Below are positions 808 through 63,580 of a stretch of DNA of 64,000 nt, piece after piece (positions within the stretch are counted from its first letter, which is position 1; each line of letters begins with the position of its first letter). The stretch is taken from contig DVJI01000012.1 in the NCBI GenBank assembly GCA_018716885.1, forward strand, positions 78,050 to 142,049, read 5' to 3'. A program made the translations under genes and the position numbers. The stretch comes from Candidatus Enterousia intestinigallinarum (GTDB taxonomy: Bacteria > Pseudomonadota > Alphaproteobacteria > Rs-D84). The notes beneath the pieces are model-generated. The model saw only the letters and a program-made list of their open reading frames with translations, was not told the origin of the DNA and ran no database searches.

Positions 808-1488
808 TCATTTTCCTTCTATTAAATCCGGACGACGTTGTTTTGTTATTTCGTCCGATTGTTGTTTCCGCCACCGTTCTATATTGCCGTGGTGACCGGA
901 CAGCAGGACTTCTGGGACATTACGTCCACGCCATACCGACGGGCGGGTATATAACGGCCATTCCAACCCCCCGATTTCAAAACTTTCATTGGCCGTGGCA
1001 TCCGCGCCACCGCCCAGCACATTATCCATCACGCGAACCACACTGTCAATAAAAACTTGCGCGGCAATTTCACCGCCCGACAGTATATAATCGCCAATGG
1101 ATAATTCCATTATATCATATTCATCAATGATTCGCTGATCAATGCCTTCGTACCGACCACACAGCAGGGTGAATACCCCATTTGGTTGTCCGGCAAATTC
1201 ACGAACCATTTTTTGTGTCAATCGTGGCCCGCGTGGTGAAAAATAAATTATTTTACCGCGATTTTTAACCGAATCCAGCGCGTCACCCAACACGTCTGCA
1301 CGCATAACCTGGCCAACACCACCGCCAAATTGTTCGTCATCAACACTGCCGTAGTTGTCGTGGGCAAAATCACGAATGTTTATTGCATCATACGACCAAA
1401 TATCATTATTCAAAGCACGCCCGACAACCCCGCCACCCAACGTGCCAGGAAACATTTCCGGAAAAATGGTCAGTATGTTGAAATGCAT
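808..1488 (-). CDS. trmD: tRNA (guanine37-N1)-methyltransferase
   Basis: The translation begins MHFNILTIFPEMF, typical of TrmD. Operon context is as expected. Confidence 0.9.
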   Translation of the reverse strand: MHFNILTIFPEMFPGTLGGGVVGRALNNDIWSYDAINIRDFAHDNYGSVDDEQFGGGVGQVMRADVLGDALDSVKNRGKIIYFSPRGPRLTQKMVREFAGQPNGVFTLLCGRYEGIDQRIIDEYDIMELSIGDYILSGGEIAAQVFIDSVVRVMDNVLGGGADATANESFEIGGLEWPLYTRPSVWRGRNVPEVLLSGHHGNIERWRKQQSDEITKQRRPDLIEGK

Positions 1489-21947: not shown

Positions 21948-21960
21948 TTTAATTACCTGT

Positions 21961-24477
21961 TTATTCCGCAACATAACATACGGAGTTTTCATAATACCCG
22001 CCCATCAGTTCTTCGCACTGTGCACGATACCATTCATCGGTAAATGTGCATTCGTCACGCGACAAATCATATGATGCAACCGGTGTTTCCAATCCGTCAT
22101 TATAATCCAGGCAACGCAACATTGTCGTGTTTTCAACACAGCGTCCCCAATCGGTTACTTCATTACCACCATACACCTGTCTATAGAACCCAGACAGCAA
22201 AGTTCCTTCGCCACTGACACGACTGTCAACAACGTTAGTAACACTGTCATCATTATCCATCCAGTACCCATCCAATTCTTCACAAGTTTCCATCAACTGG
22301 TAATCCAGTTCTTCCTGAATATCATCTATTGCGCGTTTTATCTGATCACTAACCTGTGCGATAAATTCATCACCGGAACTGGTCGGATCCGCACAATTTT
22401 GACTTGCAAAGTTCTGAATAGATTCTTCCAATTCATCCGGACTCATATTACGGCAGTTCCACGGATAGCCCATTTCTCCATCATCCGGGGTGCACAAATC
22501 CGCCAGATAATTATCAATCGCGGTTTCGCAGCCCTCGGTAATACGAACGGTATCAACCGTGTCAACAAACGCCAACAAAGCGGTCAGACCACACCGGTCT
22601 GCGGCGGCAGCACCAGTTAAACTGCTGCTGTTATTACCGCTGCCGGCCACTAATCTGCCATTACCATCAAATTCACAACCGTCAGTGTTTCCATACAATG
22701 ACGCACAGGCGATAACCTGATCCTGGCACATTGAACGTGCAGCATACGCACTGATTGCACCGGTATATTGCGATGTAGTATTGTCAAAATCCTGCAACGC
22801 GCCAGTTTGCGTATCATAACATTCGGCCATAGTGCTGACACAGGACATTTTGACTTCTTCTATTTTTTCATCCTGTGCCTGTGCAATTTCAATCAGGGCC
22901 TGGCGCTTAAATTCTTCCCATACAATATCAGATATATCACGACAGGTATCTAATGCGCTTTCTGCAAACATACGTTTGTCGTCCAAAAATGTATTAAATT
23001 CCGAATTTGCACTCAATACATCACCAGCGTTACTGGCATTTACCCCCGGCAGTAATATCATATTCGTCAATTCAAACAAGCGCGGTGAATAAATCGGCTC
23101 ACCCGTACTTTGGTTGATATATGCCCCGGTATAGTCCAAACAACGTTGATAATTCGGACCACAGGCCGTATCCGCCTGAATAGCGGAACGAACATTTGCG
23201 ATACATTCGTTCACGTCGGCTGAATTATGTGATTGATATTCTTCCAGACGTGCTTCACGCAGGTATTTTTCCGCCGTACGTACAGTTTGTTCCAATCCCT
23301 CTTTTTGAGAATTTATATTTTTCTCATACAGGTTGCAATCCTGTGTAATCATAATGCTGTACGCGCTGCGCGCCATTGTCAAAACGGCATTATTCTCGCA
23401 AGAATCTGCGATTAAATCCAGACATTGTTTGCTGGCCTCGTTATACAAATCCTGGCCGGTCAGGGTGGACAAATCAACCCCCGTTGACGTATCAAATATA
23501 GAACTGCCAGAATCGCCCCAAATATCACCCAAGTCAGATGTAAAATCAACCGTCAACAGCCCCAGCGAAGTCCCCGACGAACTGGATGACGAAGACGATG
23601 AACTGTTTCCAGACAACAAATCACTGATTTCCGACAACATATTTGCCGCGGCACTGGTGTCACGTTTGATTGCATTTTCACCCTCGGTCGCGGTGTACAT
23701 TGCGGTAACTTCTTCGGCCGTCAGATTGACCGCCGTCAGATTATTATCCTGGAACTGCGCCAACAGGTTTAATGCCTGGTCAATCGCGTTTTCCGTATCA
23801 CGAAATTCATCATATCGGGCACTGCACACGCATCTGCGGTATGTGTCATTTGCATTTGCACAAAACTGATCCATACAGGTTGCATACGCTTCACGACATT
23901 CTGCATAACCGCCCCCAATGGCAGAAATATCTGTAAAGACCGCTGTTGCACGCGCGGTTGATGCACGCGATGCCCCAACAACGGAATTAGTCGATGCCGC
24001 ACGCGCCGTACTGGCCGGATTATGCGTTGCGCCACGCACGACATTTGACGATGCCGCACGCGATGTGGTTGCACTGCGTGCCGCAGTTGCTGATGTCGGA
24101 ATCGTCTGACGAATTGTGCCGCTACGTCCAGTGACAACATTTGTTGCCGATGGCATAATATTTGCCGAACGCGCCACAGTCGTGCTGGGGCGTGATGTCG
24201 CACTGCGCGACACGGTTGTTGCCGCCGCACGTCCTGAAACAGTTGACGTCGTTGTCGGTGTTGTACCCGACGTTGCAGCGGAATTTACACGCACAACGCG
24301 ACTGCTGTTTGCACGCGATGTTGCACCAGTGGCCGCGTCCGATGTCGCAACCGTAACAGACGCCGTGGACGAGCCACGTGGATTTGGTGCCTGTTCAGCC
24401 AACGCCGGCCAGCACAGTGCCAACACCGACCAAAAAGCAAGTGAATATTTGCAAAAATCAGCAACGCGTTTAATCAA
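21961..24477 (-). CDS. Large secreted protein (838 aa) with a Thr/Ala/Arg/Ser-rich N-terminal low-complexity region and a conserved Cys-containing core; paralog of 60824..63580
   Basis: TTG start followed by signal peptide (…SLAFWSVLALCWPALA). The core aligns block by block with the 918-aa protein, e.g. C.EAY..CMDQFC...D.YRRC.CS.R, ATEGENA, GPNYQRCLDYTGAYINQSTGEPI. Confidence 0.65.
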   Translation of the reverse strand: MIKRVADFCKYSLAFWSVLALCWPALAEQAPNPRGSSTASVTVATSDAATGATSRANSSRVVRVNSAATSGTTPTTTSTVSGRAAATTVSRSATSRPSTTVARSANIMPSATNVVTGRSGTIRQTIPTSATAARSATTSRAASSNVVRGATHNPASTARAASTNSVVGASRASTARATAVFTDISAIGGGYAECREAYATCMDQFCANANDTYRRCVCSARYDEFRDTENAIDQALNLLAQFQDNNLTAVNLTAEEVTAMYTATEGENAIKRDTSAAANMLSEISDLLSGNSSSSSSSSSSGTSLGLLTVDFTSDLGDIWGDSGSSIFDTSTGVDLSTLTGQDLYNEASKQCLDLIADSCENNAVLTMARSAYSIMITQDCNLYEKNINSQKEGLEQTVRTAEKYLREARLEEYQSHNSADVNECIANVRSAIQADTACGPNYQRCLDYTGAYINQSTGEPIYSPRLFELTNMILLPGVNASNAGDVLSANSEFNTFLDDKRMFAESALDTCRDISDIVWEEFKRQALIEIAQAQDEKIEEVKMSCVSTMAECYDTQTGALQDFDNTTSQYTGAISAYAARSMCQDQVIACASLYGNTDGCEFDGNGRLVAGSGNNSSSLTGAAAADRCGLTALLAFVDTVDTVRITEGCETAIDNYLADLCTPDDGEMGYPWNCRNMSPDELEESIQNFASQNCADPTSSGDEFIAQVSDQIKRAIDDIQEELDYQLMETCEELDGYWMDNDDSVTNVVDSRVSGEGTLLSGFYRQVYGGNEVTDWGRCVENTTMLRCLDYNDGLETPVASYDLSRDECTFTDEWYRAQCEELMGGYYENSVCYVAE

Positions 24478-24536
24478 ATTTTACATCTCTCTTTTTGCAT
24501 TTTATCATTTTTTGGATAGTTTAATCAACACCCAAT

Positions 24537-25193
24537 TTATTCAATGCAACAATTTACCGCATTTTTTACCCAGTCACCCAAACGACGCACCGCCGACTTA
24601 GATTCTGCAACAGTCGGCGCCTTTTCCGGCACGGTTGCAGATGTCGGCTTTTCCGCGTCAACCACACATTTTGCATATACGTCTGGCGCAATTTTTTTAA
24701 CCCCGGTCAAATCGATTAAATCCATATTGATGCCCCAGAACAAAGAATACAGTTCATATGACTTGTTAAACAAATCATATGCATCACGGGTATTACCAGC
24801 GGATAGCGCCTTGGTTCCAACTTCCATAACACGCATAGACGCAGCCAACAAATGCTTGGAAATGCACCATACTTCGCCATTTTCGGCCGATGATTTTTTA
24901 ACGATACGGCTCATTAAATCCTTGCGCATATCGCGAACAGTATTTATCAAATCGTAAAAACCGGTTTTTTGCGTTTTTGCGCCGCTGAAAAAGAAATGTT
25001 CTTCCAGTGAAATCAGGTTCATCAGCGCGATAGACAAATCCTGGTCTGATGATAAATCCAACGGATTTACTTTTTTAGATGCATCAACACGCGCCACCAT
25101 TTCTTCCAGTGTCATTTTCGCTGCGCGATTTGACTTTTTATTTGACGCCTTTGCGGCCGCTTGTTTTACCGTTTTTTCAGATTTTTTTGCCAT
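24537..25193 (-). CDS. Hypothetical cytoplasmic protein with a basic Lys/Ala-rich N-terminus
   Basis: ORF of about 218 aa on the same strand between the membrane-protein gene and the 838-aa gene. No homology recognised. Confidence 0.45.
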   Translation of the reverse strand: MAKKSEKTVKQAAAKASNKKSNRAAKMTLEEMVARVDASKKVNPLDLSSDQDLSIALMNLISLEEHFFFSGAKTQKTGFYDLINTVRDMRKDLMSRIVKKSSAENGEVWCISKHLLAASMRVMEVGTKALSAGNTRDAYDLFNKSYELYSLFWGINMDLIDLTGVKKIAPDVYAKCVVDAEKPTSATVPEKAPTVAESKSAVRRLGDWVKNAVNCCIE

Positions 25194-25219
25194 AATTTTC
25201 CTTCCTTTCAAAAATCAAA

Positions 25220-25729
25220 TTACATTGTAATCAGCCAGAACACGATTGTCGCCACAATCAAAAACGACAATGGAACAACAACCTTTTGAAATGCGAACTT
25301 TGCGTGACCGCCGTTTTCACGTTTAATTTTGATATACCAACGCGCGCCCAGATAAAACGCGATTGTGCCGACAATAATACCCAACAAGAACTTATCAATT
25401 CCCCACAGTGTCGCCGCGCCAAATTCCACACTGGGCAACGCATAAACCAACCCCAGCAGTCCGTAATAGAATACGAACGGCACAACAATCTGCCAGAAAG
25501 CACTTTTTACATTATGCTTTTTCAACCAGCCGGCCGTCCAGAAAAACAGCGACAATGTCAATCCACCGGCCCAGATTCCGGTAATAACATCATCAACCCC
25601 CAGCAAACGCATACCTTCCAACCCAGCGCCAACCGCAACCGTGCACACTGGACAAACCGCCATTGCCGCCGGCATAACCATCAACATCGCCAACGCCGCA
25701 AATCCCAACTGTGAAATAACTTTTTTCAT
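25220..25729 (-). CDS. Polytopic inner-membrane protein (169 aa) with a CPVC motif, uncharacterised
   Basis: About 4-5 hydrophobic helices. Starts 8 nt after the preceding gene on the same strand. Confidence 0.5.
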   Translation of the reverse strand: MKKVISQLGFAALAMLMVMPAAMAVCPVCTVAVGAGLEGMRLLGVDDVITGIWAGGLTLSLFFWTAGWLKKHNVKSAFWQIVVPFVFYYGLLGLVYALPSVEFGAATLWGIDKFLLGIIVGTIAFYLGARWYIKIKRENGGHAKFAFQKVVVPLSFLIVATIVFWLITM

Positions 25730-30169: not shown

Positions 30170-30976
30170 TTACATAACCTTGCCCTGGGTCGGGTAAAAG
30201 GTCAGTTGTATTTTTTCCCACTTATCAAACTCATTTTCCGGCAGCATCTTAAACGGCTGGCACACATTTATCGCACTGCGTATTGTGTCCAGGACATACG
30301 CAAACGCTGGATCTGTTTCCGCACGCGCCGCCGATTCAAACCATACATCACGCACAGTACCATTACGACGCATCGTCAAATGCGCCACCGCACGAATATC
30401 ACCAATATCCGCGCGTGTTGTATCTATTGTCCAACAACGCGTCATCGCCACACGCAGCGCATCAACCACCGACACCGTCAACGTGCGATTCAGTGACACA
30501 GATTCACGGTTTACGCGTATAACTGTTTTTTTCTTCTTTGGCTTTTCCGTTTCAGATTGGGTCGGTTTTGGTTCGTCTTCAACCGTTTTCACAACTGGAT
30601 CCGGCACGTCCGGGGCGATTGGCGTTTCTTCAACCAAACTTGGGACAGTTATTTGTTCCGGTTCCGTTTCTATTGGCGCGGGTTCTGGTTCCGGATCGGC
30701 CACGGATGCCGCATCGTTGTCACTTTGATTTGACACATCTGCGTCATCGGATGTTTCTGGTTCAGAATCTGCATTGACATTATACAAAGTAGTTTCATCA
30801 CCACTGACACGCACAGAATCCAAATCGATTTCCAGTATTTCTATGCGATCGGACGCCACGGTCATTGCACGATCAACAACAACGGCGAACGACGTCACCA
30901 TTATCGCAATCAGCGCCAGGTGCCCACACACGGATATCAAGAAATTTTCTGATGAAAATCGATTGCCAAAATTCAT
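30170..30976 (-). CDS. TolA/TonB-like periplasm-spanning protein
   Basis: N-terminal transmembrane anchor, a Pro/Glu-rich spacer (PEPEPAPIETEPEQ) and a C-terminal TonB/TolA-like domain. It lies downstream of tolQ/tolR-like genes. Confidence 0.55.
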   Translation of the reverse strand: MNFGNRFSSENFLISVCGHLALIAIMVTSFAVVVDRAMTVASDRIEILEIDLDSVRVSGDETTLYNVNADSEPETSDDADVSNQSDNDAASVADPEPEPAPIETEPEQITVPSLVEETPIAPDVPDPVVKTVEDEPKPTQSETEKPKKKKTVIRVNRESVSLNRTLTVSVVDALRVAMTRCWTIDTTRADIGDIRAVAHLTMRRNGTVRDVWFESAARAETDPAFAYVLDTIRSAINVCQPFKMLPENEFDKWEKIQLTFYPTQGKVM

Positions 30977-30982
30977 ATCTGT

Positions 30983-31387
30983 TTATTCTGCATCCAGTTG
31001 AGTACGCAAACCAACACGCTGGAAACCGGCGTCTTTCAGTTTTCCCATAATGGACATCACCGCGCCATAGTCCGCCGACGCGTCCCCATTTATCATAATT
31101 GTCAAATCCGGGTTTTCGCCACGCATTGCAACAACGCGACGAACCGCGTCATCGCGCGATAATTTTGTTTCACCGACATAATATTCGCCTGTGGCATCGA
31201 CACTGATTTGAATTGCGTGATCGTTTCCGGTCAATGCCGACGTGCCCGCCCGCGGCAGATTCAAATCAATCCCCGTGGTCAGCATCGGCGTTGTCACCAT
31301 AAACACAGCCAACAGCACCGTCATAATGTCTATCATTGGTGTCAGTGATATATTGACATCTGTGTTTCTGTTTCTTCTGCGCGTCAT
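30983..31387 (-). CDS. tolR: TolR/ExbD family biopolymer transport protein
   Basis: ExbD/TolR fold: single transmembrane helix after MTRRRNRNTDVNISLTPMIDIMTVLL. Confidence 0.75.
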   Translation of the reverse strand: MTRRRNRNTDVNISLTPMIDIMTVLLAVFMVTTPMLTTGIDLNLPRAGTSALTGNDHAIQISVDATGEYYVGETKLSRDDAVRRVVAMRGENPDLTIMINGDASADYGAVMSIMGKLKDAGFQRVGLRTQLDAE

Positions 31388-31395
31388 TTTGATAC

Positions 31396-31902
31396 CTATT
31401 TGCGTTTGTCGTATTTTCCGGCTTTCAATTCTTTGACCCGTTCGGTTAAAACGTCATACAGGTCGTCTGATTTTTTACTGAAATACTGATACGCGATTGC
31501 CGCCGGCACCGCCGCAATCAGCCCCAACGCCGTTGTTCCCAATGCAGTTGCCAATCCAGGCGCAATAACACCGATTGAAACGGACTGATTTACACCAATT
31601 GATGCAAACGAATCCATAACCCCCCAAATAGTTCCAAACAGTCCGATAAATGGCGCAACATACGACACCATTGACAAGAACCACAGATTTCTATCAAACG
31701 GACGTATCAATTTATCTGCAATCAAAGATAAATTGTCACTGTTTTTAATCTGTACCGGATGTTTTTTCTGAAAATGCCACAGGCGGATTTTTTCAACAAT
31801 CACAGCCCAGGACATAATGCTGCCTAACACCAACACCAACGAAATGAACAACGTCATCAAGTCGCCAGTAAATAACGTCGTCAAAGAAAAAGCATTTGTC
31901 AT
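31396..31902 (-). CDS. tolQ: TolQ/ExbB family proton-channel protein (short form)
   Basis: MotA/TolQ/ExbB signature in the C-terminal half (GLFGTIWGVM...ALGTTALGLIAAVPA). Confidence 0.75.
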   Translation of the reverse strand: MTNAFSLTTLFTGDLMTLFISLVLVLGSIMSWAVIVEKIRLWHFQKKHPVQIKNSDNLSLIADKLIRPFDRNLWFLSMVSYVAPFIGLFGTIWGVMDSFASIGVNQSVSIGVIAPGLATALGTTALGLIAAVPAAIAYQYFSKKSDDLYDVLTERVKELKAGKYDKRK

Positions 31903-48867: not shown

Positions 48868-49347
48868 TTAATTGCTGTAATAGCAATCTGCAGTGTACGT
48901 ATATGTTCCACTTGTGTCAGTTCCGGTTGTTCCAGACGGCAAATAACACGACGTAATCACAGTTGAACCGGCCACAGACGAACCACTGTTTGGACAGCAC
49001 GTACAACCAGATGAACCATTTATGGTTCTTCCATAATATCCCGCAGCACATCGGTATTGAATTGATGAAGTACACTTTGTTGATGTTGAACAATATCTAT
49101 ATGTACGACGTTCATAACCCGTTGCGTACGCCGTCCACGCTGACGGCGAACAGTTGGATGCTGTACACGTCGTACCACCACCAGACATAACACAGATTCC
49201 ACCGGGGCAATCCGTGTCCCTCGAGCACGCCAGTCCATCGGAAGGGCCGCCATCACAAATTCCACGTATACCAGCAACAGCAAACGTCGTACTCGATATA
49301 AATATGGGTATCGCAATAATTATAGTGGGTAAAATAAAATATTTCAT
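48868..49347 (-). CDS. Small secreted Cys-rich protein (159 aa), lineage-specific family
   Basis: Signal peptide MKYFILPTIIIAIPIFISSTTFA, 20 Cys, ribosome-binding site (AGGAG). Its C-terminal third recurs at 40494..40637. Confidence 0.6.
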   Translation of the reverse strand: MKYFILPTIIIAIPIFISSTTFAVAGIRGICDGGPSDGLACSRDTDCPGGICVMSGGGTTCTASNCSPSAWTAYATGYERRTYRYCSTSTKCTSSIQYRCAAGYYGRTINGSSGCTCCPNSGSSVAGSTVITSCYLPSGTTGTDTSGTYTYTADCYYSN

Positions 49348-49661: not shown

Positions 49662-52052
49662 TTACAGCAACGGCGGGAAACAATCGCCACCGGCTTCTGG
49701 GCAACAGTTGAATCCCATATCACCCATATCGGTATAAACTTCACCAGTGCAGCACCCGTTCACGTCCGGCGCCGTACCGTCTGGACAGGTCGGCAAATCT
49801 TCAACCGTATCCGACCATACCACGGACGTTACAGATTGCGGAACATATCCGTCATCGGACGCCACCGATGCTTGGGATGAATTTAATCCGGATTGATTTT
49901 CCACCGGCGCGCTGACAATCGACGGACCGACTGTATCAACGGCCTGCATATTATTTTGACGCAATGTTTCGGTATCGTAATTTTCATCTGCGACAAACAT
50001 ATTTTCATTTTGTGAAACGTTATATGCCGGCTTGCTGGCCAAAATTTCTTCTTCAGTTGGAATTTCCGGCTTTGGTTCAGTGCTTGAAACTGGTGTGGTT
50101 ACGGCGACAGATTCAACAACCACATCAGCTGCTGGCACTTGTTCAGCAACCGTTTCTGGTGTATCAACAGGTTCCGGTTCTGGTTCTGTCACTGGTTCTG
50201 GTTCCGGAATTTCCACGGGAGCCGGTTCTTCCACAACAGGTTCCGGTTCGGGTTCTTCCACAGGAACGGGCACTGTTATTTGCGTTTCAACAGTTTCAAC
50301 TGCGGCCGGCGTTTCCAATTCCGGTATAAACGGACTGTCCGCATCAGTTAAATCATCTGCCTGTGCGGTTTCCGTTGTGGTTGGCACTGTTGCGGTTAAA
50401 TCAGGTGCATTTTCACTGGTGTTCTTTTGATACAACCACAATGTAAATATAGACAACCCAATCAACAACACCAACATTATATAATAAACTAATGTAGGTT
50501 TACGCGGTGCTGGATTACTTGGCGCCACATTACCAGTAATCGGCGACACAGGACGCGGCGCGGACGCAGCAGCCGAAACAGTTGACGCCGGCGGGACAGG
50601 GCGCGCCCCTGCATCTACCGCTGGCGACGCCGTGGCGGGCGCCTGGGGTTCTGGATTTTGTGCCGCTGGCAGCGGTTCAGATTCTGCATCTGGTACAACT
50701 GGCGAAATATTCGGCACCAGTTCAGAATCTAATTGTTGGGCAGAATTATCCGCGGCCGTCGGCATATTCACGGACGTAATTGTATCCAAAACCGGTGTTG
50801 TTGCTTTTTCATCTGATACACGCGGTGCTTCTTCACCAGTTACAGGTCTGACATTTATTGGCGCGTTGTCCGCACGCTTATCAGACGGTGGTGTGAACGA
50901 CAACGGTTTGTCATCAATAATATTTTCATACACTTCCGGATTGTCGGTAACCGGACTTGTTTCATCAGACACCGGACTGGAAACACCAAACTCAATCGGC
51001 TTAAACGCGATTTCTTCGTCCAATATTTCCGGGTCTTTATCAAACAGTGGTTTTACCGCATCATTATTTGTTTCATCGGCCATTATTTCCGCCTTTGGTT
51101 CTTCATTTATATTTTCTGTAAATTCCACGCGTTCTTCTTCATCAACAGGCATACGTGCAACCACATCATCATCAGACGCCACGGCCGCAACACTGGTATG
51201 TGCAGGCGCACCAACCGCAGTTGATTCAACAGGCGCAGAATCACCGGCCACGGATTCTTTGTCATCCGTATCAAAATCCACATCCGTATCATAAGACACA
51301 TTGTATGTTGTTGTAACCGATGGAATAGCATCGTGTGCCTGCGGGGCATCGACATCACGCACAACAGCAACCGGTGCACGCGCCAAAATTTCACGCGCAA
51401 TTTGTGCATCTTCGTCCGCAACAATCAGGCGCCGCTGTGCATTATCCAGACGTTTTTTTGCACGACGCAGTTTTTCATTTGTTGCATCAATCTGCGCATC
51501 CGTACGCAATATTTTAGACGCCGACTTTTTTGTCGGTTCACGTCCGACCTGTTTTTTCTGTTGCGACAACTTGGCCCGCAACTGGCGTAATTTCGTTTGC
51601 AGTTCGGCAATGCTTTCACGTGTTCTGACGATTGTTTCGCGTGCAGTTTCGGCATTTGCATCTGCAACGGCCAAACGTTCCGTCGCTGCGCGCCGGACGG
51701 AATCTTCACGAAAAGCAGTCAGTGCCGTCAGCGCCGCCGTCAAATCATCGCCATTTTCATATGCGTTGATTAAATTGTCGTATTCAGCCAAGCCGCTGTA
51801 TTCAATATCTAACTTTTGATATTTATTATTTTTCTTTGGGCGCACAGTTTCCAAATCAACGTTATAATCATTGGCCAAAATGTCATCCCATTTGCGGTCA
51901 CCAACCGGATTTATCACCAAAAGAGCATTTGGCTTGCGATCGTCCAGCGTGCTGTCCAAAACAAACACCAACTTATCATCGGCATCATAATACGCACGCA
52001 ACACGTTTCCGGCGATATTGTATTCCCTGAACGTCAAAACAGATTTATCCAT
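49662..52052 (-). CDS. Single-transmembrane protein (796 aa): cytoplasmic coiled-coil N-domain, one transmembrane helix, periplasmic acidic Pro/Glu-rich repeats and a Cys-rich C-terminal knot
   Basis: Ribosome-binding site (GAGAGGGAAAA) then ATG. Heptad-like region LRQLRAKLSQQKK...LRRAKKRLDNAQRRL. Transmembrane helix LVYYIMLVLLIGLSIFTLWLY. Repeat run EPEPEPVVEEPAPVEIPEPEPVTEPEPEPV. C-terminus CPDGTAPDVNGCCTGEVYTDMGDMGFNCCPEAGGDCF. Confidence 0.6.
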   Translation of the reverse strand: MDKSVLTFREYNIAGNVLRAYYDADDKLVFVLDSTLDDRKPNALLVINPVGDRKWDDILANDYNVDLETVRPKKNNKYQKLDIEYSGLAEYDNLINAYENGDDLTAALTALTAFREDSVRRAATERLAVADANAETARETIVRTRESIAELQTKLRQLRAKLSQQKKQVGREPTKKSASKILRTDAQIDATNEKLRRAKKRLDNAQRRLIVADEDAQIAREILARAPVAVVRDVDAPQAHDAIPSVTTTYNVSYDTDVDFDTDDKESVAGDSAPVESTAVGAPAHTSVAAVASDDDVVARMPVDEEERVEFTENINEEPKAEIMADETNNDAVKPLFDKDPEILDEEIAFKPIEFGVSSPVSDETSPVTDNPEVYENIIDDKPLSFTPPSDKRADNAPINVRPVTGEEAPRVSDEKATTPVLDTITSVNMPTAADNSAQQLDSELVPNISPVVPDAESEPLPAAQNPEPQAPATASPAVDAGARPVPPASTVSAAASAPRPVSPITGNVAPSNPAPRKPTLVYYIMLVLLIGLSIFTLWLYQKNTSENAPDLTATVPTTTETAQADDLTDADSPFIPELETPAAVETVETQITVPVPVEEPEPEPVVEEPAPVEIPEPEPVTEPEPEPVDTPETVAEQVPAADVVVESVAVTTPVSSTEPKPEIPTEEEILASKPAYNVSQNENMFVADENYDTETLRQNNMQAVDTVGPSIVSAPVENQSGLNSSQASVASDDGYVPQSVTSVVWSDTVEDLPTCPDGTAPDVNGCCTGEVYTDMGDMGFNCCPEAGGDCFPPLL

Positions 52053-52092: not shown

Positions 52093-52665
52093 TTATGCCT
52101 GCTTTTTCTTTGGTGGCGTGAACTGATACGCCTGTTTACAGTGCTCGTAACAATACGGCTTGCCAACAAACACCGGTGCCCCACAGAAATGAAAACCTTC
52201 GGAATCTGGGTCACCTATTGGCCAACGACACTGGTTTGGTTTCAAATTTGCCATTTCCAAAGAATGCTGAATAATCCGCTGATGCATCGCCAGATTTTTC
52301 GTCATTGATTTGGCACCGGTGGCCGGGGACGAAGTTTTCTTTTCCACCGGTTTTACCGGTTTAGTGACTGACTTTTTAGCAGCGGCCCCCGTACGCGATG
52401 TGGTCGCCAGCTTTTTTGCAGCACCACGTGTCGCCGTGGTCTTTTTAGCAGTTGACTTAGCAGCCGATTTTTTCGCTTCTGCTTTTTTTGGTTTATCCGC
52501 CGCCGCAACACCACCGGCCTTGGAATTCCAGCCCAAACGGTTCAATTTGCCAACAACGGCATTTTTACTCATCCCCAGACGTTTACCAATTTCAGCCGTG
52601 GACAGCCCCTTGCCGGTCAGCGCCTTTAACTTTTTAAGTGTTGCGTTATCCCAACCTTTACTCAT
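52093..52665 (-). CDS. gcrA: Cell-cycle transcriptional regulator GcrA
   Basis: N-terminus MSKGWDNATLKKLKALTGKGLSTAEIGKRLGMSKNAVVGKLNRLGW and C-terminus ...CRWPIGDPDSEGFHFCGA...GKPYCYEHCKQAYQ are the conserved GcrA signature. Confidence 0.85.
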   Translation of the reverse strand: MSKGWDNATLKKLKALTGKGLSTAEIGKRLGMSKNAVVGKLNRLGWNSKAGGVAAADKPKKAEAKKSAAKSTAKKTTATRGAAKKLATTSRTGAAAKKSVTKPVKPVEKKTSSPATGAKSMTKNLAMHQRIIQHSLEMANLKPNQCRWPIGDPDSEGFHFCGAPVFVGKPYCYEHCKQAYQFTPPKKKQA

Positions 52666-52738
52666 TTCAAAAAATCCTTGTTATATATAACGTCATAATT
52701 GTAACATAATTTCGAATCGAAAGGCAAGGGGGAAAAAT

Positions 52739-53215
52739 ATGATTTACAATATCTTTTTCATTGTGCTGTTGGCGGTGGCGGCCATATGCGCGTGGCGTAT
52801 TTGCGTTGCCGATTGGCGCCGTCGAATAATACCAGATGCGTATTTGTTCCCGCTGCTGTTGATTGGATTGATTATAACGCACTTTTTCCCGTGGCCGACA
52901 TCCCCCGCCGACGGGGTAATTGCGGCAATATTCGGATATGCACTGGCCGCGTGTGTTGGGTTTATTTTTGACGTTCGTCAACGTCACCAGAATAAACCGA
53001 ACGTCGCGCCTGCACCAATCGGTATGGGCGATATAAAACTGATGGCGGCGGGCGGAATATGGTTGGGGACAGTTGGACTAGCCGTGGCACTGATTGTCGC
53101 GTGCGTGGCCGGAATAGTATGGGGATTGCGCCGGAAACAAAAATATATCCCGTTTGCACCGTTCTTTATTATTGGTGGAATTTTGTCTTTAATTACAATG
53201 GTGTTTTTGATATAA
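52739..53215 (+). CDS. cpaA: Type IV prepilin peptidase, CpaA/TadV-like (A24 family)
   Basis: 158-aa polytopic membrane protein with CpaA-like Asp-containing motifs (ADWRRRIIPD...GMGDIKLMAAGG). Confidence 0.6.
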   Translation: MIYNIFFIVLLAVAAICAWRICVADWRRRIIPDAYLFPLLLIGLIITHFFPWPTSPADGVIAAIFGYALAACVGFIFDVRQRHQNKPNVAPAPIGMGDIKLMAAGGIWLGTVGLAVALIVACVAGIVWGLRRKQKYIPFAPFFIIGGILSLITMVFLI

Positions 53216-53235
53216 TAATCTAAAAACAGGGAATA

Positions 53236-54144
53236 ATGGACAGAGAAATGAAATCGAAAATATTATCCATAATCGGTGCCGTATTCGGTCTGGGGGCAAT
53301 GCCGGCAATGGCAACGACATTTCCGACAACCACAACGCCTTTTTCACAATATGGCCAAATTCAAAATGTTCAAAATTATTCATCAAATCCATTTTGGAAC
53401 CCGAACAGCCCGTATAACCAGCGTATGCCCGTACCAGTTTATGTTCAGGGTACCGATGTGGATACAAACGATTGTCAAACGGTTGTTGGGGCATTGGTGT
53501 CGGCATATTGTGCATCGCGCAACAACTGTGTTGGGATTGACGTTGACGACGCGCGCCCGACGTTGACCGTACAGTTGGCCAGTTTGCCTAACCATAACTA
53601 TGTCACACCGTGTGCTGGATATATCGACACGGAATTCAGCAAATATGTATCCCAAAATGCACTGGCCGTACCGACGGGCGGGGCGGTTGCATTTCCAACG
53701 GCAACAACACCAAACACAAACACGAACAGCCAACCGGCGGAATTTCAAAACCCATATCAGCAGCAATTACCAACCTGGAACGGCGAACCGTGGATGCAGG
53801 ATATGCTTGAACGCAAACAGGAATTGGAACAACTGCAATCTGCGACCACTGGTGGCGATACAACATTGGCACGTGCTGACTTTCCGTCATCGGCATCAGA
53901 TTTGACATTTACCCAGCGGATTCAAAACGACGCGGCGGGCTATGCACCATACACGGGCAAATCTGCATACCGTACAATCAACATAGAAAGTGAAGAGGCA
54001 TACCAACAGCGTACAAATGCATATTGCTCATCTGAAATTGCCAAACTTACAACAATTGATACAGACCTGGCAACACTATACAAATGTAAAAACGACGGAA
54101 CTCCGTTCAACGATTGCAAAAAATTATTAAAGGGAATTTATTAA
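53236..54144 (+). CDS. Secreted Gln/Asn/Pro/Thr-rich protein with Cys pairs (302 aa), uncharacterised
   Basis: Signal peptide MKSKILSIIGAVFGLGAMPAMA. First of four consecutive exported-protein genes after cpaA. Confidence 0.5.
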   Translation: MDREMKSKILSIIGAVFGLGAMPAMATTFPTTTTPFSQYGQIQNVQNYSSNPFWNPNSPYNQRMPVPVYVQGTDVDTNDCQTVVGALVSAYCASRNNCVGIDVDDARPTLTVQLASLPNHNYVTPCAGYIDTEFSKYVSQNALAVPTGGAVAFPTATTPNTNTNSQPAEFQNPYQQQLPTWNGEPWMQDMLERKQELEQLQSATTGGDTTLARADFPSSASDLTFTQRIQNDAAGYAPYTGKSAYRTINIESEEAYQQRTNAYCSSEIAKLTTIDTDLATLYKCKNDGTPFNDCKKLLKGIY

Positions 54145-54146
54145 AA

Positions 54147-55244
54147 ATGCGCAAAAATTTGGCCGTCTTTTTTGCCACAGTTGCATTGTTATTCGTTGCA
54201 GATGATGCAAATGCTTTGATGTGGAACGACCCTGGCGTAACCCCGGTGCAGAGTATTTCTGATCACCGTTGGCGTGACGCGAACACCGGTCGCCTGATAA
54301 ATGTTACGGGTATGCCAAATGCAACCCCCACACCAACACCAACGCCAACTCCCGCACCTGCACCTGCACCAACACCAACCCCCACCCCAACTCCTTCTCC
54401 GGCACCGACCCCAAGTCCTGCACCAAGTTCGTCTGGCACTACGACGCCACGCACAAATTGGGGCAGTATGTCAAAGGCTGCAAGGGCGGGCGCCGCACTG
54501 GGTATTGTCGGTGGCGCAGCCGGCGTATATGCATCAACCGCGGGCCAGGGCGAGCACAGTGGTTGGAATGTTGCCGGTGGCGCGGCCAGTGGTGCAATTG
54601 CCGGCGCATCAATTGGCAGTATATTCCCAGTAATCGGTACTGGTATCGGGGCAGCTGCTGGCGCGGTTATCGGTGGTTTAATATCTGGTTCCCAATTGTT
54701 TTCGGAAACAGATTGTCTTTATGACCCCGTGACAGGTATCTTTACTTGCTGTAATACGGTATTCAATCAAGGGGAACGCCAGGCAAATATCGGCGATTAT
54801 ATGTTTTGTGGCGTGGAACAGGATGGTACCAATGTTATCGCCGCACCGGGTGTCCGCCAATGTTTACAGGGAAAAATGAAAGACGAATCCACTTGGTCCG
54901 ATACCGCCGCGGGGTGGTGGGACGGAATGTGGGTTGATGATTTTTGGCAACCAGAATGCGTGGCTCGCTATTGTACGGAATCCGGCGCGCCGGCCGAAGG
55001 CATAGAATCATATATCGAATACATACCAGATACAACAAACTATTGTTGGAACTGGGATTGCGTTTCCGGCTATACGCGCAGTGGTAACACCTGTATCGCC
55101 GCATCAACAAACGAACCGGTCAACCCATACACAACACCAGAAAGCCCAAATGCAAACCCATACGATGTATTGATACAACAACTGCAGCAGTACCGCACAA
55201 ATATTATCAGAATGTGCGGATATATGTTGGGTACAAATAAATAA
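54147..55244 (+). CDS. Secreted protein with a Pro-Thr/Pro-Ala linker, a glycine-zipper segment and a Cys-rich C-terminal domain (about 365 aa)
   Basis: Signal peptide MRKNLAVFFATVALLFVADDANA. Linker PTPTPTPTPAPAPAPTPTPTPTPSPAPTPSPAPSS. Glycine-zipper GAALGIVGGAAG...GAIAGASIGS...GTGIGAAAGAVIGGLISG. 18 Cys in the C-terminal 170 aa. The ORF track extends the frame upstream to a TTG at 54114. Confidence 0.5.
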   Translation: MRKNLAVFFATVALLFVADDANALMWNDPGVTPVQSISDHRWRDANTGRLINVTGMPNATPTPTPTPTPAPAPAPTPTPTPTPSPAPTPSPAPSSSGTTTPRTNWGSMSKAARAGAALGIVGGAAGVYASTAGQGEHSGWNVAGGAASGAIAGASIGSIFPVIGTGIGAAAGAVIGGLISGSQLFSETDCLYDPVTGIFTCCNTVFNQGERQANIGDYMFCGVEQDGTNVIAAPGVRQCLQGKMKDESTWSDTAAGWWDGMWVDDFWQPECVARYCTESGAPAEGIESYIEYIPDTTNYCWNWDCVSGYTRSGNTCIAASTNEPVNPYTTPESPNANPYDVLIQQLQQYRTNIIRMCGYMLGTNK

Positions 55245-55251
55245 AATTTTT

Positions 55252-57036
55252 ATGCAAATTCGTATAATTGCATCTTTGGTAATTGCACTTTGCGCCACAC
55301 GTGTGGCGCTTTGTGCAGATGCACAAAACATCCCCGCGTCTGCATCAACAAACACAACTTCAATTATTGGCGACGGAACATCGGATTTTGGAACCGATTT
55401 TATACCGGCGTCTGAACTGCTGGCGCGCACCCCGGACGAAACACAGTGCGCAACGGCCGCGTTCGCGAATGCGCTGCGTGAAAACGCCGGTGCTGTTTCT
55501 GAAACAGATTCCGAAACGGATATACAAAAGTGGATATACCAGACCTTTAATAACGCCGATGTGTTACGTGCTGTATTGTCCTGTCCGGAAATTGCGTCAC
55601 GTGCAGACGACGAAACAATTAAATTTCTGCCGATAACATATACTTTTCCAGCGGGTCGTGAAATTGTTGTAAATTACGAAACACAGCCCAAAATATTAAA
55701 ACAGCGTGTAACACTGTCAGAAAAGCGTTCATTGCCGTCATCCGATCCAAACCCACGGGTCGGCGCACCTGATGACGATGCAATCTGGACAAATACCGAT
55801 CCCGCCTGGTACGGGATTATGGTGGTACAATCCGGAACACTGGATAACTTTGTCGGTCCAAACAAGAATAACACGATATCGCTAAAATATATAAATGATA
55901 ATATCGATACGTTATTTCCCCGGGGCAATCAGTGCACTGGTAAATCGGCACTGACAAATGATAACACTATGATAAATCGTGCAATGCGCGAAACGGTTGC
56001 ACTGGACGATGACACAAATGACTACTATGTTGCGGGTGACGCCAACCTACAATGGATTTCATATTTGGAAATCGGATTGGACGTTGCGATAACCGTTGCA
56101 ACAATGGGCGGTGGCACGGTTGTTCTGGGTGCGACCAAGGCCGCCCGCGCATCACGAACATTAAAGAATTTAAGTACCACATTGCGCACATTGCGCCAAA
56201 CGGATTCTGTGCGTGACTATGTACGTATCAGTCAACAGTATGCACGTGCCGCCGAAGAACTGCGCAATATTGACCGTGTGGCGGACGCGGCTGGTTACGC
56301 CCGCAAATCGGCCGAGGTCGAAAACTATGCCCGCACAATGCGCAGTTTGGAAAGTACCGACGACAATGTGCGCCAATATCGCCAGGCATCAGAAACATTT
56401 TCATCATTAAATCAATATCGACGTACACTGCGCGGATGGCGGATTCCGCAACGTGGCAATATTATTGCACGTACCTGGCGTGCGGTGCGCGCGGCAAATA
56501 CCGGCGCACAACAACTGCGCAGCGCGGCCCGTGTCGCGCGCAGCAGTACGCTGTCCGGACGTGTTCGCGACTGGCTGTTTCAATCAACATTGGCAAATGT
56601 CGGGGCACTGGCGCGTCTGGAACGTGCCGGCGGATTTATATACGGCGCGCTGAAGTTTGTTGGCGGTATGTATGACTGGACGGAAACAAGCACTGGTGAT
56701 TTCACCAGTGGTATAGAATTTAAGCCGTTGACATTATTGTCCGCCGACGATTTACAGGGTCAAGAAAATGTTATAAACCACGGAATGTGGTTGATGTGGG
56801 CGGGCGACGCATACACTGCCGCCGATGACGACGCCGCGTTTTTACAGGCAATGGATTTTGCAAACAAATTCCACTTTAACCTGGACACAATTCAGGCGGA
56901 CGAAAACAATCACGCGTGCGACGTTGATATTTATGTTGTGCGCCCGATTATACGAAACCCCGGATCGGATAATCCAGAATTATACTATCTGGTAATGAAC
57001 GATGAACCGTGGACGACACACAACACGGACGAATAA
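55252..57036 (+). CDS. Large secreted protein (594 aa) with short Arg/Tyr-containing internal repeats, uncharacterised
   Basis: Signal peptide MQIRIIASLVIALCATRVALCA. Repeats of about 25 aa of the form ..VRDYVRISQQYARAAEELRNID / ..AGYARKSAEVENYARTMRSLESTD / DNVRQYRQASETFSSLNQYRR. Confidence 0.5.
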   Translation: MQIRIIASLVIALCATRVALCADAQNIPASASTNTTSIIGDGTSDFGTDFIPASELLARTPDETQCATAAFANALRENAGAVSETDSETDIQKWIYQTFNNADVLRAVLSCPEIASRADDETIKFLPITYTFPAGREIVVNYETQPKILKQRVTLSEKRSLPSSDPNPRVGAPDDDAIWTNTDPAWYGIMVVQSGTLDNFVGPNKNNTISLKYINDNIDTLFPRGNQCTGKSALTNDNTMINRAMRETVALDDDTNDYYVAGDANLQWISYLEIGLDVAITVATMGGGTVVLGATKAARASRTLKNLSTTLRTLRQTDSVRDYVRISQQYARAAEELRNIDRVADAAGYARKSAEVENYARTMRSLESTDDNVRQYRQASETFSSLNQYRRTLRGWRIPQRGNIIARTWRAVRAANTGAQQLRSAARVARSSTLSGRVRDWLFQSTLANVGALARLERAGGFIYGALKFVGGMYDWTETSTGDFTSGIEFKPLTLLSADDLQGQENVINHGMWLMWAGDAYTAADDDAAFLQAMDFANKFHFNLDTIQADENNHACDVDIYVVRPIIRNPGSDNPELYYLVMNDEPWTTHNTDE

Positions 57037-57097
57037 TTACCCATTGTATTTTTTTACGCGACGACTTATAATAACAAATGAAAGGGGGCGCGTCGTT

Positions 57098-57418
57098 ATG
57101 TTAAAGAAACTATTATTAGCACTGTGTCTGGTCGGCGTTTCCGTCGGCGGTGCAAACGCTTATCAGTTATTGTCATCCAAAGAATTGGGCAAAAACGATG
57201 CCAAGAATCAAACGGTTGTTGTAAAATGCACAACCGATACGGGCAAAACGTCAAGTCAGACGTGTACACTGCGCCGCTATGCAAAGTGCACCGGCACTGG
57301 CACTAACAAGACCTGTAACGGTTGGCAGGCGTGGCAGGATTTACGCACCCCGAACAAAAAATATTCTGATTGGCGCAGTGCGGCATCCGCCTGTTGCCGT
57401 GCCAAGGGATTGCGTTAA
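57098..57418 (+). CDS. Small secreted Cys-rich protein (106 aa)
   Basis: Ribosome-binding site (aaaggggg) before MLKKLLLALCLVGVSVGGANA. 8 Cys. Terminator downstream. Confidence 0.5.
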   Translation: MLKKLLLALCLVGVSVGGANAYQLLSSKELGKNDAKNQTVVVKCTTDTGKTSSQTCTLRRYAKCTGTGTNKTCNGWQAWQDLRTPNKKYSDWRSAASACCRAKGLR

Positions 57419-57431
57419 ACCCATTTTCAAT

Positions 57432-57460
57432 AAAAACCCCGCCGAAATGGCGGGATTTTT
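57432..57460. terminator. Intrinsic terminator (aaaaaccccgccgaaatggcgggattttt)
   Basis: Hairpin plus T-run between the small secreted gene and tRNA-Val. Confidence 0.65.
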
Positions 57461-57467
57461 AATATTC

Positions 57468-60823: not shown

Positions 60824-63580
60824 ATGAAGAAAATTCTGCATTTTATCGGTATTTTCGCCGTGTGCATTGGCGTCGCCAATGCGGCTGTACGTGATGAAAA
60901 TGCGACGAATCGACAATCTGCAACAACATCTGCATCTCAATCAACAATATCACGCACCGCATCGACCAAGGCCGCCGCCGCACGCAACGTAACCGCGCGC
61001 ACCGCCACGTCACAACCGCTGACATCGCGCACGACACAACAGGGCGCAACAATATCACGCACTGATTCCACAACTGGGCGCAGCGCAACCGCACGTGCGA
61101 CCCAGGCCGTCACCCCAACCACAACGGCGCGCAGTGGCGCGACCGTATCACGCAGTGCGACGGCCGTACCAGCATCGACACGCGGCACAACAACGGCACG
61201 CGGCACAACAACGGCACGCAGTGGTGTGACTGTATCACGTGCCGCGATTGACACTGTTTCCGACGTTGTCGCTGACACGCGCACTGGCGCTGAATACGAG
61301 CAATGTAAAACCGCATATTTCAACTGTATGGATCAATTTTGCCAGTTAAAAAACGATGATTATCGCCGTTGTTCGTGCAGCAACCGCGTATTTGACCTGG
61401 CTGAAACACGCAGCATTATGCAAGACGCCAGTGACCAACTGACCGTATTCACGGAAAACCTGGACGTTGTCGGTATGACCGCGGCCCAAGCGACCGCGAT
61501 GAAAACCGCGACCGAGGGTGAAAATGCCCTGACATCTGACACTTCGGCATCCAAGCAGTTATTACAAGCAATTATGAATTCTATCCGTGGTGACGACGCA
61601 ACTGTTGGCGGAAAATATTCCGACCTGAACAGTATAACTTTGTCATTTGACACGGTGAACGCATTTGGTACCGCTGACGCCGGCCAGATAATTGCGACAT
61701 ATAACGGCCTGAACCTATATAACGCGGTATATCCCCAATGTCGCCAGGCAGTACGTGCCGACTGTACCGACGCACAGCTGCAACGCGCAATAACTGCATA
61801 TCTGATGGCTGTTGAACAAGATTGTAACACTGTTCAATCAGCGCTGGAAAATCAACAGAAACAAATGAAATCCGCCGTCCGCGAAAGCAGTGCTATGCTG
61901 GATTTGGCCCGTGTAGAAAATCGCCAGAATCATAATTCCAGTGATATGGCAACCTGCCTGACCGAAGTTGAAAATGCTATTTTAAGTGAAGAGGTCTGTG
62001 GTGCCGGATATCACAAATGTTTGGACAACGGCGAATTTATCGACGTATCAACCGGGGCGCCAATCGCCGGGGTGGAAAATTTCTATGAACTGGGCAACTT
62101 GTTGAAATTTGCGGATGGGGTTGACGCGGCCGACCAAAAACTGTCCAAGGTTACGTCCAATCGTTCATTTGTGAACAACTTTGAAAATCGTGTAAAAAAA
62201 TTTGCCGAACCTGCACTGGACAAATGTACAGAAATCGCAGATGATGTCTGGGCCGACTATTTGGACAAGGCAATGTTGGACATATACTATGCCCAACAAT
62301 CCAAAGTGAACGAAATTAAACAGGGATGTTTTGATTTTGTGTCGGCCTGTTATATGAACGGCGATACCGCACTGACGGCGGCAATGGCCGAACTGACCGG
62401 CGACGACACGGTTGTATTGCAACCGGACAAGGTTACATTATCCACAGAAATGTGCCGCGATTACATCAATTCGTGCAATATGATGTTCTATGACCAGACC
62501 GACGGTCAAAACATAATTACTGATTATATAAACAACCGCCAGGAAACAGATACTCTTACAGCGTGTCGCGCGGTTGTAAAACAATGCTTTGATAATTTTG
62601 GCGGAACAAATTACGAAAACTTCTATTATCCGTACAGCGGACTGTTCAAAACTGGCGAAGCACTAAAATGGTTCACTCTGTACGAATATGACGAAAACGG
62701 TACTATCAACACAGCCGAACCAGTATCAGAATGTGCAAAGCAGTTGATGGATATTTCATCGTGCAGTTCACCAGATATGATGGTGGCGGCATTTGGTGGA
62801 TTTGATGTCATAACCGCATCCAAGGGCATACACAGCAACGAAACAGTTTATTACTTTGATCCCGATGGTGATTACAAGGAAGACGGAACCGATGGCAAGC
62901 ATAGACGATATGGCCTGTTAGATGACGAAGTAACAGATGGCGTAACGGACAAAAATGGTACTGAAAATACATCTCAACGCATATTGGCGCACCATACGCC
63001 ACGTCCAACGGGTGTTGCGACAGAAATATACAATCAAATTGTCGATACACTGACAACGCAGTGTATGAACGTCCAGGGACGTTTCATAGAATTACAGTTT
63101 ATAAAAACAAATTTATACAACGAAGCCGCCCTGTGCAATGCACAATTTGGTGCATCCATTGAATACGGCGGTTCTGCGACCCCGGGCCAAGTGTCGTTGT
63201 ACCCGAACTTGGTTGAATATTATAAAATCGGTGATAATGAAAATATGTGCCCGCGCGACTATGACCTTAATGTAGATACGCAATCGTGGGGGGCGTGCCT
63301 GTGCTGGGAAAACGGGGGACGACGCAGCAAATACGGGAAAAGCCCGAAATGTGTCGCCGGCATACCAACCGATACCGCACGAAATGATGCCAACTGCACA
63401 GCAGCAGATCTTACATCACCTGTTACTGGAACACCCGGAATTGATAAATGGTGCACAATGCCACTGACGTCTGGGAACCAGGTTTGCCCGATTGGTCTGA
63501 ACGGGGGCAAAGAAGAAAATGAAATGTGCGTGTACGACGGTGAAGAACTGAATAATCTGCCCGAAGGGTTGGGAATCTGA
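60824..63580 (+). CDS. Large secreted protein (918 aa) with a Thr/Ala/Arg/Ser-rich N-terminal low-complexity region and a conserved Cys-containing core; paralog of 21961..24477
   Basis: Signal peptide MKKILHFIGIFAVCIGVANA. N-terminal TTARSGATVSRSATAVPASTRGTTTARGTTTARSG tracts. The core aligns with the 838-aa protein. Confidence 0.65.
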   Translation: MKKILHFIGIFAVCIGVANAAVRDENATNRQSATTSASQSTISRTASTKAAAARNVTARTATSQPLTSRTTQQGATISRTDSTTGRSATARATQAVTPTTTARSGATVSRSATAVPASTRGTTTARGTTTARSGVTVSRAAIDTVSDVVADTRTGAEYEQCKTAYFNCMDQFCQLKNDDYRRCSCSNRVFDLAETRSIMQDASDQLTVFTENLDVVGMTAAQATAMKTATEGENALTSDTSASKQLLQAIMNSIRGDDATVGGKYSDLNSITLSFDTVNAFGTADAGQIIATYNGLNLYNAVYPQCRQAVRADCTDAQLQRAITAYLMAVEQDCNTVQSALENQQKQMKSAVRESSAMLDLARVENRQNHNSSDMATCLTEVENAILSEEVCGAGYHKCLDNGEFIDVSTGAPIAGVENFYELGNLLKFADGVDAADQKLSKVTSNRSFVNNFENRVKKFAEPALDKCTEIADDVWADYLDKAMLDIYYAQQSKVNEIKQGCFDFVSACYMNGDTALTAAMAELTGDDTVVLQPDKVTLSTEMCRDYINSCNMMFYDQTDGQNIITDYINNRQETDTLTACRAVVKQCFDNFGGTNYENFYYPYSGLFKTGEALKWFTLYEYDENGTINTAEPVSECAKQLMDISSCSSPDMMVAAFGGFDVITASKGIHSNETVYYFDPDGDYKEDGTDGKHRRYGLLDDEVTDGVTDKNGTENTSQRILAHHTPRPTGVATEIYNQIVDTLTTQCMNVQGRFIELQFIKTNLYNEAALCNAQFGASIEYGGSATPGQVSLYPNLVEYYKIGDNENMCPRDYDLNVDTQSWGACLCWENGGRRSKYGKSPKCVAGIPTDTARNDANCTAADLTSPVTGTPGIDKWCTMPLTSGNQVCPIGLNGGKEENEMCVYDGEELNNLPEGLGI

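Follow-up and report, generated by a model that had tools for sequence, protein, structure and literature searches.

The DNA analyzed here, called the window throughout, is a 64,000-nucleotide stretch of Candidatus Enterousia intestinigallinarum (contig DVJI01000012.1), and our subject is a gene cluster at positions 52739 to 57418 of it. Five consecutive plus-strand genes lie there, encoding a short prepilin-type peptidase of the A24 family (158 amino acids [aa]) followed by four exported proteins of 302, 365, 594, and 106 aa, which we designate p302, p365, p594, and p106 (Table 1). The same five lengths were obtained from independent gene calls on identical public contigs. An earlier note on this DNA, made from the sequence alone, had described a CpaA-like peptidase followed by four tightly spaced secreted-protein genes on one strand, and this arrangement was confirmed by the coordinates, the lengths, and the export signals.

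The five-gene operon and its products

Since the intergenic gaps are short (20, 2, 7, and 61 bp) and a terminator-like hairpin (57438 to 57454, without its T-rich tail) stands at the end, the five genes constitute one tightly packed operon, in which the peptidase is very probably co-transcribed with the four genes downstream. A convergent tRNA-Val lies just beyond the hairpin, and an Rfam scan of the region returned tRNAs only and no other RNA element.

The intergenic region shared by gcrA and the peptidase is conserved above coding sequences. On the operon side, it carries a −10-like CATAAT at 52694 to 52699. On the minus strand, there is a promoter-like match for gcrA, composed of TTGCCT (52727 to 52722) and TACAAT (52703 to 52698) with an 18-nt spacer, and a GANTC site falls inside that spacer. 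In 78 of 80 genomes, this site precedes the peptidase ATG by a constant 24 to 25 nt, or by 38 nt in loci whose aligned peptidase start sits further downstream. Its central base switches between A and T from genome to genome with the motif retained, and the background frequency is 0.0024 sites per bp. In Caulobacter, GANTC methylation by CcrM and the GcrA protein act jointly at cell-cycle promoters. The conserved GANTC suggests a CcrM/GcrA-type control, linked to the cell cycle or to methylation, and the site could act on gcrA, on the operon, or on both.

Table 1. Features of the peptidase operon and of its gcrA side (positions in the window)
Feature	Position	Strand	Description
p796, gcrA neighbor	49662..52052	-	N-terminal coiled-coil, transmembrane segment at aa 518-543, Pro/Glu-rich spacers, Cys-rich C terminus (CC-rich motif)
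gcrA, cell-cycle regulator	52093..52665	-	Pfam GcrA, E 1.1e-28; divergent from the operon; adjoins the peptidase in 80 loci
Divergent control region	52666..52738	.	73 bp, nearly invariant across the lineage; GANTC at 52714-52718
Short A24 aspartyl (prepilin-type) peptidase	52739..53215	+	158 aa; PF01478; about five hydrophobic segments; no methyltransferase domain
p302, Sec-exported	53236..54144	+	N-terminal motif, Cys-containing helical domain, C-terminal module common to the GH108 muramidases of relatives
p365, variable-slot occupant	54147..55244	+	Signal peptide, Pro-Thr linker, glycine-zipper segment, 11-Cys C-terminal domain
p594, core protein	55252..57036	+	Signal peptide, acidic N-terminal domains, basic helical center, acidic C-terminal domain
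p106, small basic exported protein	57098..57418	+	Six invariant Cys in the mature form; most conserved member, 56-86% identity
Intrinsic-terminator-like hairpin	57438..57464	+	G+C-rich, CCCGCCGAAATGGCGGG then a T-rich tail; operon end

The peptidase matched PF01478 over residues 13 to 130 with a score of 60.9 bits (cutoff, 26.5). A24 prepilin peptidases are defined by two universally conserved catalytic Asp residues (PMC10191384), and the motifs for both are present in this protein, RRIIPD (Asp32) and PIGMGDIKL (Asp98). With conservation of these motifs at 95% or more across 74 genomes, the enzyme looks active and catalytically intact. It is a new member of a known family, and a PDB sequence and profile search with it gave no match. 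Its closest annotated plasmid relatives share 32 to 36% identity with it, and the nearest of them (36%) is encoded beside a type II secretion system (T2SS) cluster, not a tad locus. Like the TadV/CpaA-type peptidases, the protein has a single A24 domain in a chain of about 150 to 170 aa, the two Asp motifs, and no methyltransferase domain (architecture according to PMC10191384); unlike them, it has no flp, cpaB-F, or tad genes behind it and no substrate encoded nearby. Its gene opens the operon described here and does not close a tad operon. The CpaA-like label has the short, methylase-less architecture as its sole basis, and orthology to CpaA would be putative.

One related locus, L086, showed how the gene can be overlooked. 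At its positions 8658 to 9125, the public call is a 183-aa open reading frame (ORF) on the wrong strand, whereas tblastn revealed an intact A24 peptidase there (50% over 158 aa). Thus, absence of the peptidase from automated annotation of this lineage can be a calling artifact.

Each of the four downstream proteins starts with a hydrophobic segment that is followed by an AxA-type site (AMA/TT, ANA/LM, ALC/AD, and ANA/YQ), and these sites are conserved in the family alignments of p302 and p106. Searches of Pfam, NCBIfam, PADLOC, and PHROGs gave nothing above threshold for any of them, and PDB sequence and profile searches gave no credible match, p106 having neither a PDB nor a family match and p365 yielding only low-complexity matches on its Pro-Thr linker and glycine zipper. 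Within the window, they are paralogs neither of one another nor of other proteins. Homolog searches recovered 366 relatives of p302, which have no Pfam domains, and 764 of p594; all were unnamed, and membership in a known family was not seen. Moreover, an exhaustive profile search among 1.84 billion representatives found the p594 family in 136 clusters only. Judged by these searches, the four families are undescribed and restricted to a single uncultured order. The composition reported in the earlier note (a Pro-Thr linker plus glycine zipper in p365, Arg and Tyr in p594, and a small Cys-rich p106) was borne out.

The N terminus of p302 carries the invariant motif YGxIQNVQNYSSNPFWxPxSPYNQRMP, and its start is probably the second Met (53248), which matches the starts of its homologs. 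An AlphaFold2 (AF2) model built from the family alignment is helical, with a mean predicted local distance difference test (pLDDT) score of 61.6, a low-confidence value. The ORF of p365 could be extended to a TTG at 54114, giving 376 aa; gene calls favor 365 aa. Antisense to its Pro-Thr linker runs a Gly-Val-rich ORF of 63 aa (54263 to 54454, minus strand), a mirror artifact that yields false matches to class III signals.

For p594, four Cys residues (66, 111, 228, and 556) are invariant across the family and its paralogs. Its net charge is about −18 at aa 23 to 272, about +19 at aa 295 to 455, and about −16 at aa 477 to 594, and the strongly basic center is rich in Arg and Tyr and bracketed by the Cys228/Cys556 pair. 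Past the signal peptide, the sole family-wide hydrophobic peak lies at aa 274 to 292, with a borderline mean of 1.67. Since members of a Cys pair stand on either side of the basic center, the sequence fits a topology in which both acidic parts are periplasmic and the center either crosses the membrane twice, as a hairpin whose loop is cytoplasmic, or stays wholly in the periplasm as a helical spacer. The AF2 model from the family alignment is mostly helical and of low confidence (pLDDT, 51.7), and a fold search with it found no significant structural neighbor, only generic helical matches.

Conservation, gene fusion, and a muramidase in the order Rs-D84

A search with p594 in 185,579 species genomes returned 80 loci, nearly all of them in gut metagenome-assembled genomes (MAGs) labeled Alphaproteobacteria, Rickettsiales, or Candidatus Enterousia and one in a closed genome of 958,618 bp. 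About 90 related loci keep the gene order described below, and individual counts in this work are taken over 74 or 80 genomes or over 89 or about 95 loci. All of the loci examined come from one order, Rs-D84. These bacteria are common in human and animal guts and have genomes of less than about 1 Mb that are devoid of flagella, respiration, and most biosynthesis, for which dependence on partner cells was proposed in a 2025 survey (PMC12306168).

Two observations concern the identity of the hosts. TrmD of the window (808 to 1488) is encoded identically on scaffold_1 of ERZ28616667 (1,038,957 bp; locus L091), and this scaffold is probably an almost complete genome from the species of the window. 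In addition, five public MAGs titled Bacteroides fragilis or Muribaculaceae (L036, L072, L074, L077, and L080) carry genes of the p594 family. Four of the five show the Rs-D84-type gcrA-peptidase-p302/p594 locus, and the short L077 shows p594-p106 only; these contigs are probably mis-binned or mislabeled.

In essentially every locus that is long enough, tblastn revealed one gene order: p796 and gcrA on the minus strand and then the peptidase, p302, a slot gene, p594, an optional gene for a GH108 muramidase, and p106. This synteny persists down to about 44% p594 identity, and it is also seen in four JGI metagenome loci, one of which is part of a 558-kb contig (36% GC). The peptidase and p302 genes are adjacent, with a gap of about 20 bp, in about 80 genomes and down to 43% peptidase identity. 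Other parts of the locus turn over. About half of the loci have p365 in the slot between p302 and p594; others have a p594 paralog (about 500 aa) there, and a few have unrelated proteins. According to hhalign, p365 and this paralog are unrelated. Flanking genes vary as well, with rmlA nearby in only about ten loci and shifting positions of the genes for a 918-aa, a 142-aa, and a 159-aa protein. L080 is rearranged: its peptidase and p302 genes remain together, but its p594-p106 pair is found beyond p796-gcrA.

That this gene order is kept while genes within and beside the cluster change speaks for a degree of selection on it. We found no copy of the module in an independent lineage, as every readable context among the 136 p594 clusters had the Rs-D84-type synteny. 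Vertical inheritance of an operon specific to Rs-D84 (Candidatus Enterousia) is the best explanation of this distribution. The proposal of the earlier note that these genes form an undescribed module tied to the peptidase is supported by the synteny in about 80 genomes and by the confinement of p594 to 136 clusters.

Relatives also provided a link between two of the exported proteins. In distant members of the p594 family, the p302 signature (YGxIQNVQNYSSNPFW...) stands at the N terminus of a protein with a p594-like C-terminal body. Such fusions of p302 with a p594 paralog form 16 clusters of 619 to 695 aa from independent assemblies, and the fusion gene directly follows the peptidase and precedes the true p594 ortholog and p106. 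A single 683-aa ORF in L083 matches p302 (48.7% over 234 aa; E, 3e-69) as well as p594 (29% over 445 aa; E, 1e-34). By hhalign, p594 also matches the family of unfused paralogs (about 510 aa), at a probability of 100% (E, 6e-45). Gene fusion of this kind is standard evidence for joint action. Since the two are joined into one polypeptide in these relatives, p302 and p594-type proteins probably act together.

The GH108 muramidase gene is found between p594 and p106 in 21 of 89 loci. Some of the encoded proteins show a weak, sub-threshold match to PG_binding_3, and the N-terminal 65 aa or so align with residues 211 to 281 of p302 at 42% identity (E, 1.4e-10). The module is real, and three new findings, namely, the fusion, the muramidase gene of some loci, and the conserved GANTC, give it an internal structure.

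Pilus signatures and the role of the peptidase

Type IV filament systems have four core proteins, namely, pilin(s), a prepilin peptidase, an extension ATPase, and a platform protein (Pelicic review, PMC10191384), and of these, the peptidase alone is present at the locus. A Pfam scan of 50 ORFs, nearly all long ORFs of the window, detected no T2SSE, T2SSF, Secretin, SAF/RcpC, Flp, or TadE domain, and precomputed Pfam labels on the gene calls of 10 kb on either side of the window included no pilus domains. Neither a six-frame motif scan of the window nor a scan of all loci revealed an Flp-type pilin or a TadE/F protein with a G/XXXXEY site. These data upheld the view of the earlier note that the locus is not a tad/cpa operon. 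We regard it as highly improbable that a Tad/Cpa machine has diverged here so far that it is no longer recognized, in which case p302 would correspond to CpaB, p594 to the CpaC secretin, and p106 to CpaD. The sole resemblance is to Caulobacter cpaA-D, which has roughly this order and these sizes of genes; p302 and p594 gave no Secretin, SAF, or RcpC match at E values up to 0.1, and the operon and the window have no pilin, ATPase, or platform gene. Furthermore, both proteins are predicted to be largely helical, and these models, although of low confidence, look unlike CpaB or a secretin, the folds of which are beta-rich.

The earlier note had also suggested that the peptidase might process the four proteins. 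They would then be noncanonical A24 substrates, like the archaeal sugar-binding proteins processed by PibD, the "bindosome" proteins, which are to our knowledge the only precedent for non-pilin substrates. Archaeal non-pilin proteins with class III signals were reportedly described by Szabo et al. in 2007 (cited in PMC10191384). At this locus, too, a prepilin-type peptidase is associated with exported non-filament proteins, and the genes appear to be co-transcribed and are strictly co-located. In contrast to the archaeal substrates, which have genuine class III signals, the four proteins and their homologs have typical Sec signals of the signal peptidase I type with conserved AxA sites. A class III signal is made up of a short basic leader with Gly as its last residue and a run of about 20 hydrophobic residues, in which position +5 is usually Glu. 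None of the four has a charged leader ending in Gly, a Glu at position +5, or a pilin-like hydrophobic stretch after the cleavage site. A G-x4-E-F string in p302 (aa 128 to 134) is not a prepilin motif because it is internal and not followed by a hydrophobic stretch. A pattern scan across all loci was negative as well: 65,519 candidate starts in about 95 related loci included no class III signal, and the matches were antisense or low-complexity artifacts. In addition, the site of action of prepilin peptidases is the cytoplasmic side of the membrane (PMC10191384), and the conserved Gly of p302 lies past the Sec cleavage site. Thus, processing of the four proteins by the peptidase, as suggested, was not borne out, and we consider it very unlikely.

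We favor, at a probability of about 0.55, the interpretation that this is an order-specific envelope operon, which combines an intact A24 peptidase with four Sec-exported envelope proteins that likely form a complex and which does not encode a Tad pilus. The four proteins would reach the periplasm via Sec and signal peptidase I without being cleaved by the A24 enzyme. There, a peptidoglycan-associated complex would arise from p106 and from p302 and p594-type proteins bound to one another. The C-terminal module of p302 could be used for docking and, in genomes with the muramidase, also for recruiting that enzyme, and the slot protein, p365 in this genome, would be an exchangeable component that is possibly surface exposed. 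The basic helical center of p594, placed between acidic domains with paired invariant Cys, may serve to span the periplasm as a spacer or may pass the membrane twice as a hairpin. The peptidase would be co-expressed with this module from the GANTC-bearing region common to gcrA. Most likely, it matures a few proteins with class III signals encoded elsewhere, such as pseudopilins or pilins of a T2SS, a Tad system, or the like, since the A24 peptidases known so far work, almost without exception, for type IV filament systems.

Several points weigh against this interpretation. The complex is hypothetical; both AF2 models are of low confidence (pLDDT, 51.7 and 61.6), and the fold searches gave only matches that are generic for helical proteins. 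The link to peptidoglycan comes from relatives alone, as tblastn found no GH108 gene in the window, where only the p302 module matched. Signal peptides were judged by eye and hydropathy, and the GANTC site may be there for gcrA alone. Only a single order has been sampled, so the conserved synteny could reflect inheritance rather than selection. Finally, genes with no functional relation often share a transcription unit in compact genomes; hence, co-transcription of the peptidase need not mean a common function.

A lesser but serious possibility is that the peptidase and the exported proteins are adjacent without sharing any function. The peptidase would then serve a T2SS, a Tad pilus, a type IV pilus, or a competence pilus encoded elsewhere, and its position would result from genome compaction and common descent. 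In all known type IV filament systems, pilins, an ATPase, and a platform protein accompany the prepilin peptidase (PMC10191384), which makes a substrate system elsewhere the default expectation. The nearest plasmid relative of the short peptidase, standing beside a T2SS cluster, is in line with this view, as are the restriction of all examined loci to one order and the many large exported proteins of the genome, which would need a route through the outer membrane. On the other hand, the peptidase-p302 pair has survived in about 80 genomes, including L080, despite the turnover of the flanks and of the slot. The only published survey of Rs-D84 genomes, moreover, credits type IV pilus genes to UBA9783 and mentions none for Rs-D84 (PMC12306168). 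If Rs-D84 is devoid of type IV filaments, the A24 peptidase could have been kept, with its catalytic residues intact, for a non-pilin role in a new peptidoglycan-crossing structure, composed of p302, p594-type proteins, p106, and sometimes the GH108 muramidase, placed under GcrA/CcrM-type control and possibly used by these partner-dependent bacteria for attaching to or feeding from other cells; this scenario we hold to be unlikely. Least credible of all is a prophage origin, with the locus as what is left of a lysis or tail module. It would account for the match of the relatives' GH108 protein to an endolysin PHROG (E, 1.4e-28) and for weak matches of p365 to tape-measure and tail-lysin PHROGs, yet the latter are confined to the linker and glycine-zipper segments. 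In all genomes, moreover, the locus is surrounded by housekeeping genes and its chromosomal position is fixed, and integrase genes or att sites were not seen. Since p302, p594, and p106 have no PHROG match and no relatives of p594 were found on 2.9 million viral contigs, a prophage origin was rejected.

Which of these scenarios holds determines what the locus means. Should the lineage prove to be pilin-free, a prepilin-type peptidase would have been retained for a non-filament role, and we know of no earlier case in bacteria of such an enzyme kept outside type IV filaments. If its substrates exist elsewhere, the finding amounts to a lineage-specific envelope operon, which is useful for annotation and not surprising. 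The interface with partner cells may reasonably be sought in this order-wide operon of undescribed exported families, which some genomes supplement with a muramidase.

Known trans-envelope systems and neighboring genes

Hydrolases such as VirB1, FlgJ, and EtgA are recruited to trans-envelope machines, and the GH108 arrangement recalls such recruitment. As for these enzymes and the GH108/PG_binding_3 "secretion activator" hydrolases, a GH108 gene is part of the operon in about a quarter of the related loci and has a module in common with p302; unlike them, it has no T2SS-to-type VI secretion system cluster, flagellum, or pilus beside it, and the operon of the window itself is devoid of a muramidase. 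The architecture of p594, with globular ends and a long charged middle predicted to be helical, can be compared with those of helical proteins that span the periplasm, such as TolA or the alpha-hairpin adaptors HlyD/EmrA. This is an analogy only: HlyD and EmrA were among the nonsignificant Foldseek matches of p594, and no sequence similarity or significant structural similarity to these proteins was found.

On the other side of gcrA lies the p796 gene, which is next to gcrA in nearly all loci. Its product has no family match above threshold and may be part of the same envelope system. The remainder of the window holds housekeeping genes, including dnaE, secA, dnaK, ruvB, argS, tig, thyA, rpsA, tolQ, and ribosomal protein genes, and it also encodes several large Cys-rich exported proteins.

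One of these, a 1,268-aa exported protein with 94 Cys (10391 to 14197, minus strand), contains repeats related to the 159-aa Cys-rich p159 (48868 to 49347, minus strand) in several BLAST segments with E values of about 1e-5, and it gave weak matches to Flg_new and to ephrin-receptor-like domains. Together, the two look like a lineage-specific family of Cys-repeat surface proteins. Downstream of mraW, a position that usually holds division and cell wall genes, there are four genes without Pfam matches (169, 224, 838, and 438 aa; 20676 to 25729, minus strand). The 838-aa protein is a paralog of a 918-aa Cys-rich exported protein encoded at 60824 to 63580 on the plus strand (34% over 566 aa; E, 2e-83). 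At 30170 to 31902 (minus strand), a TolQ/ExbB-like gene (31396 to 31902) is followed by a 134-aa ORF and a gene for a 268-aa membrane protein, whose Pro/Glu-rich region resembles that of p796 (E, 4e-7); these genes probably encode a Tol-type system with a TolA-like protein.

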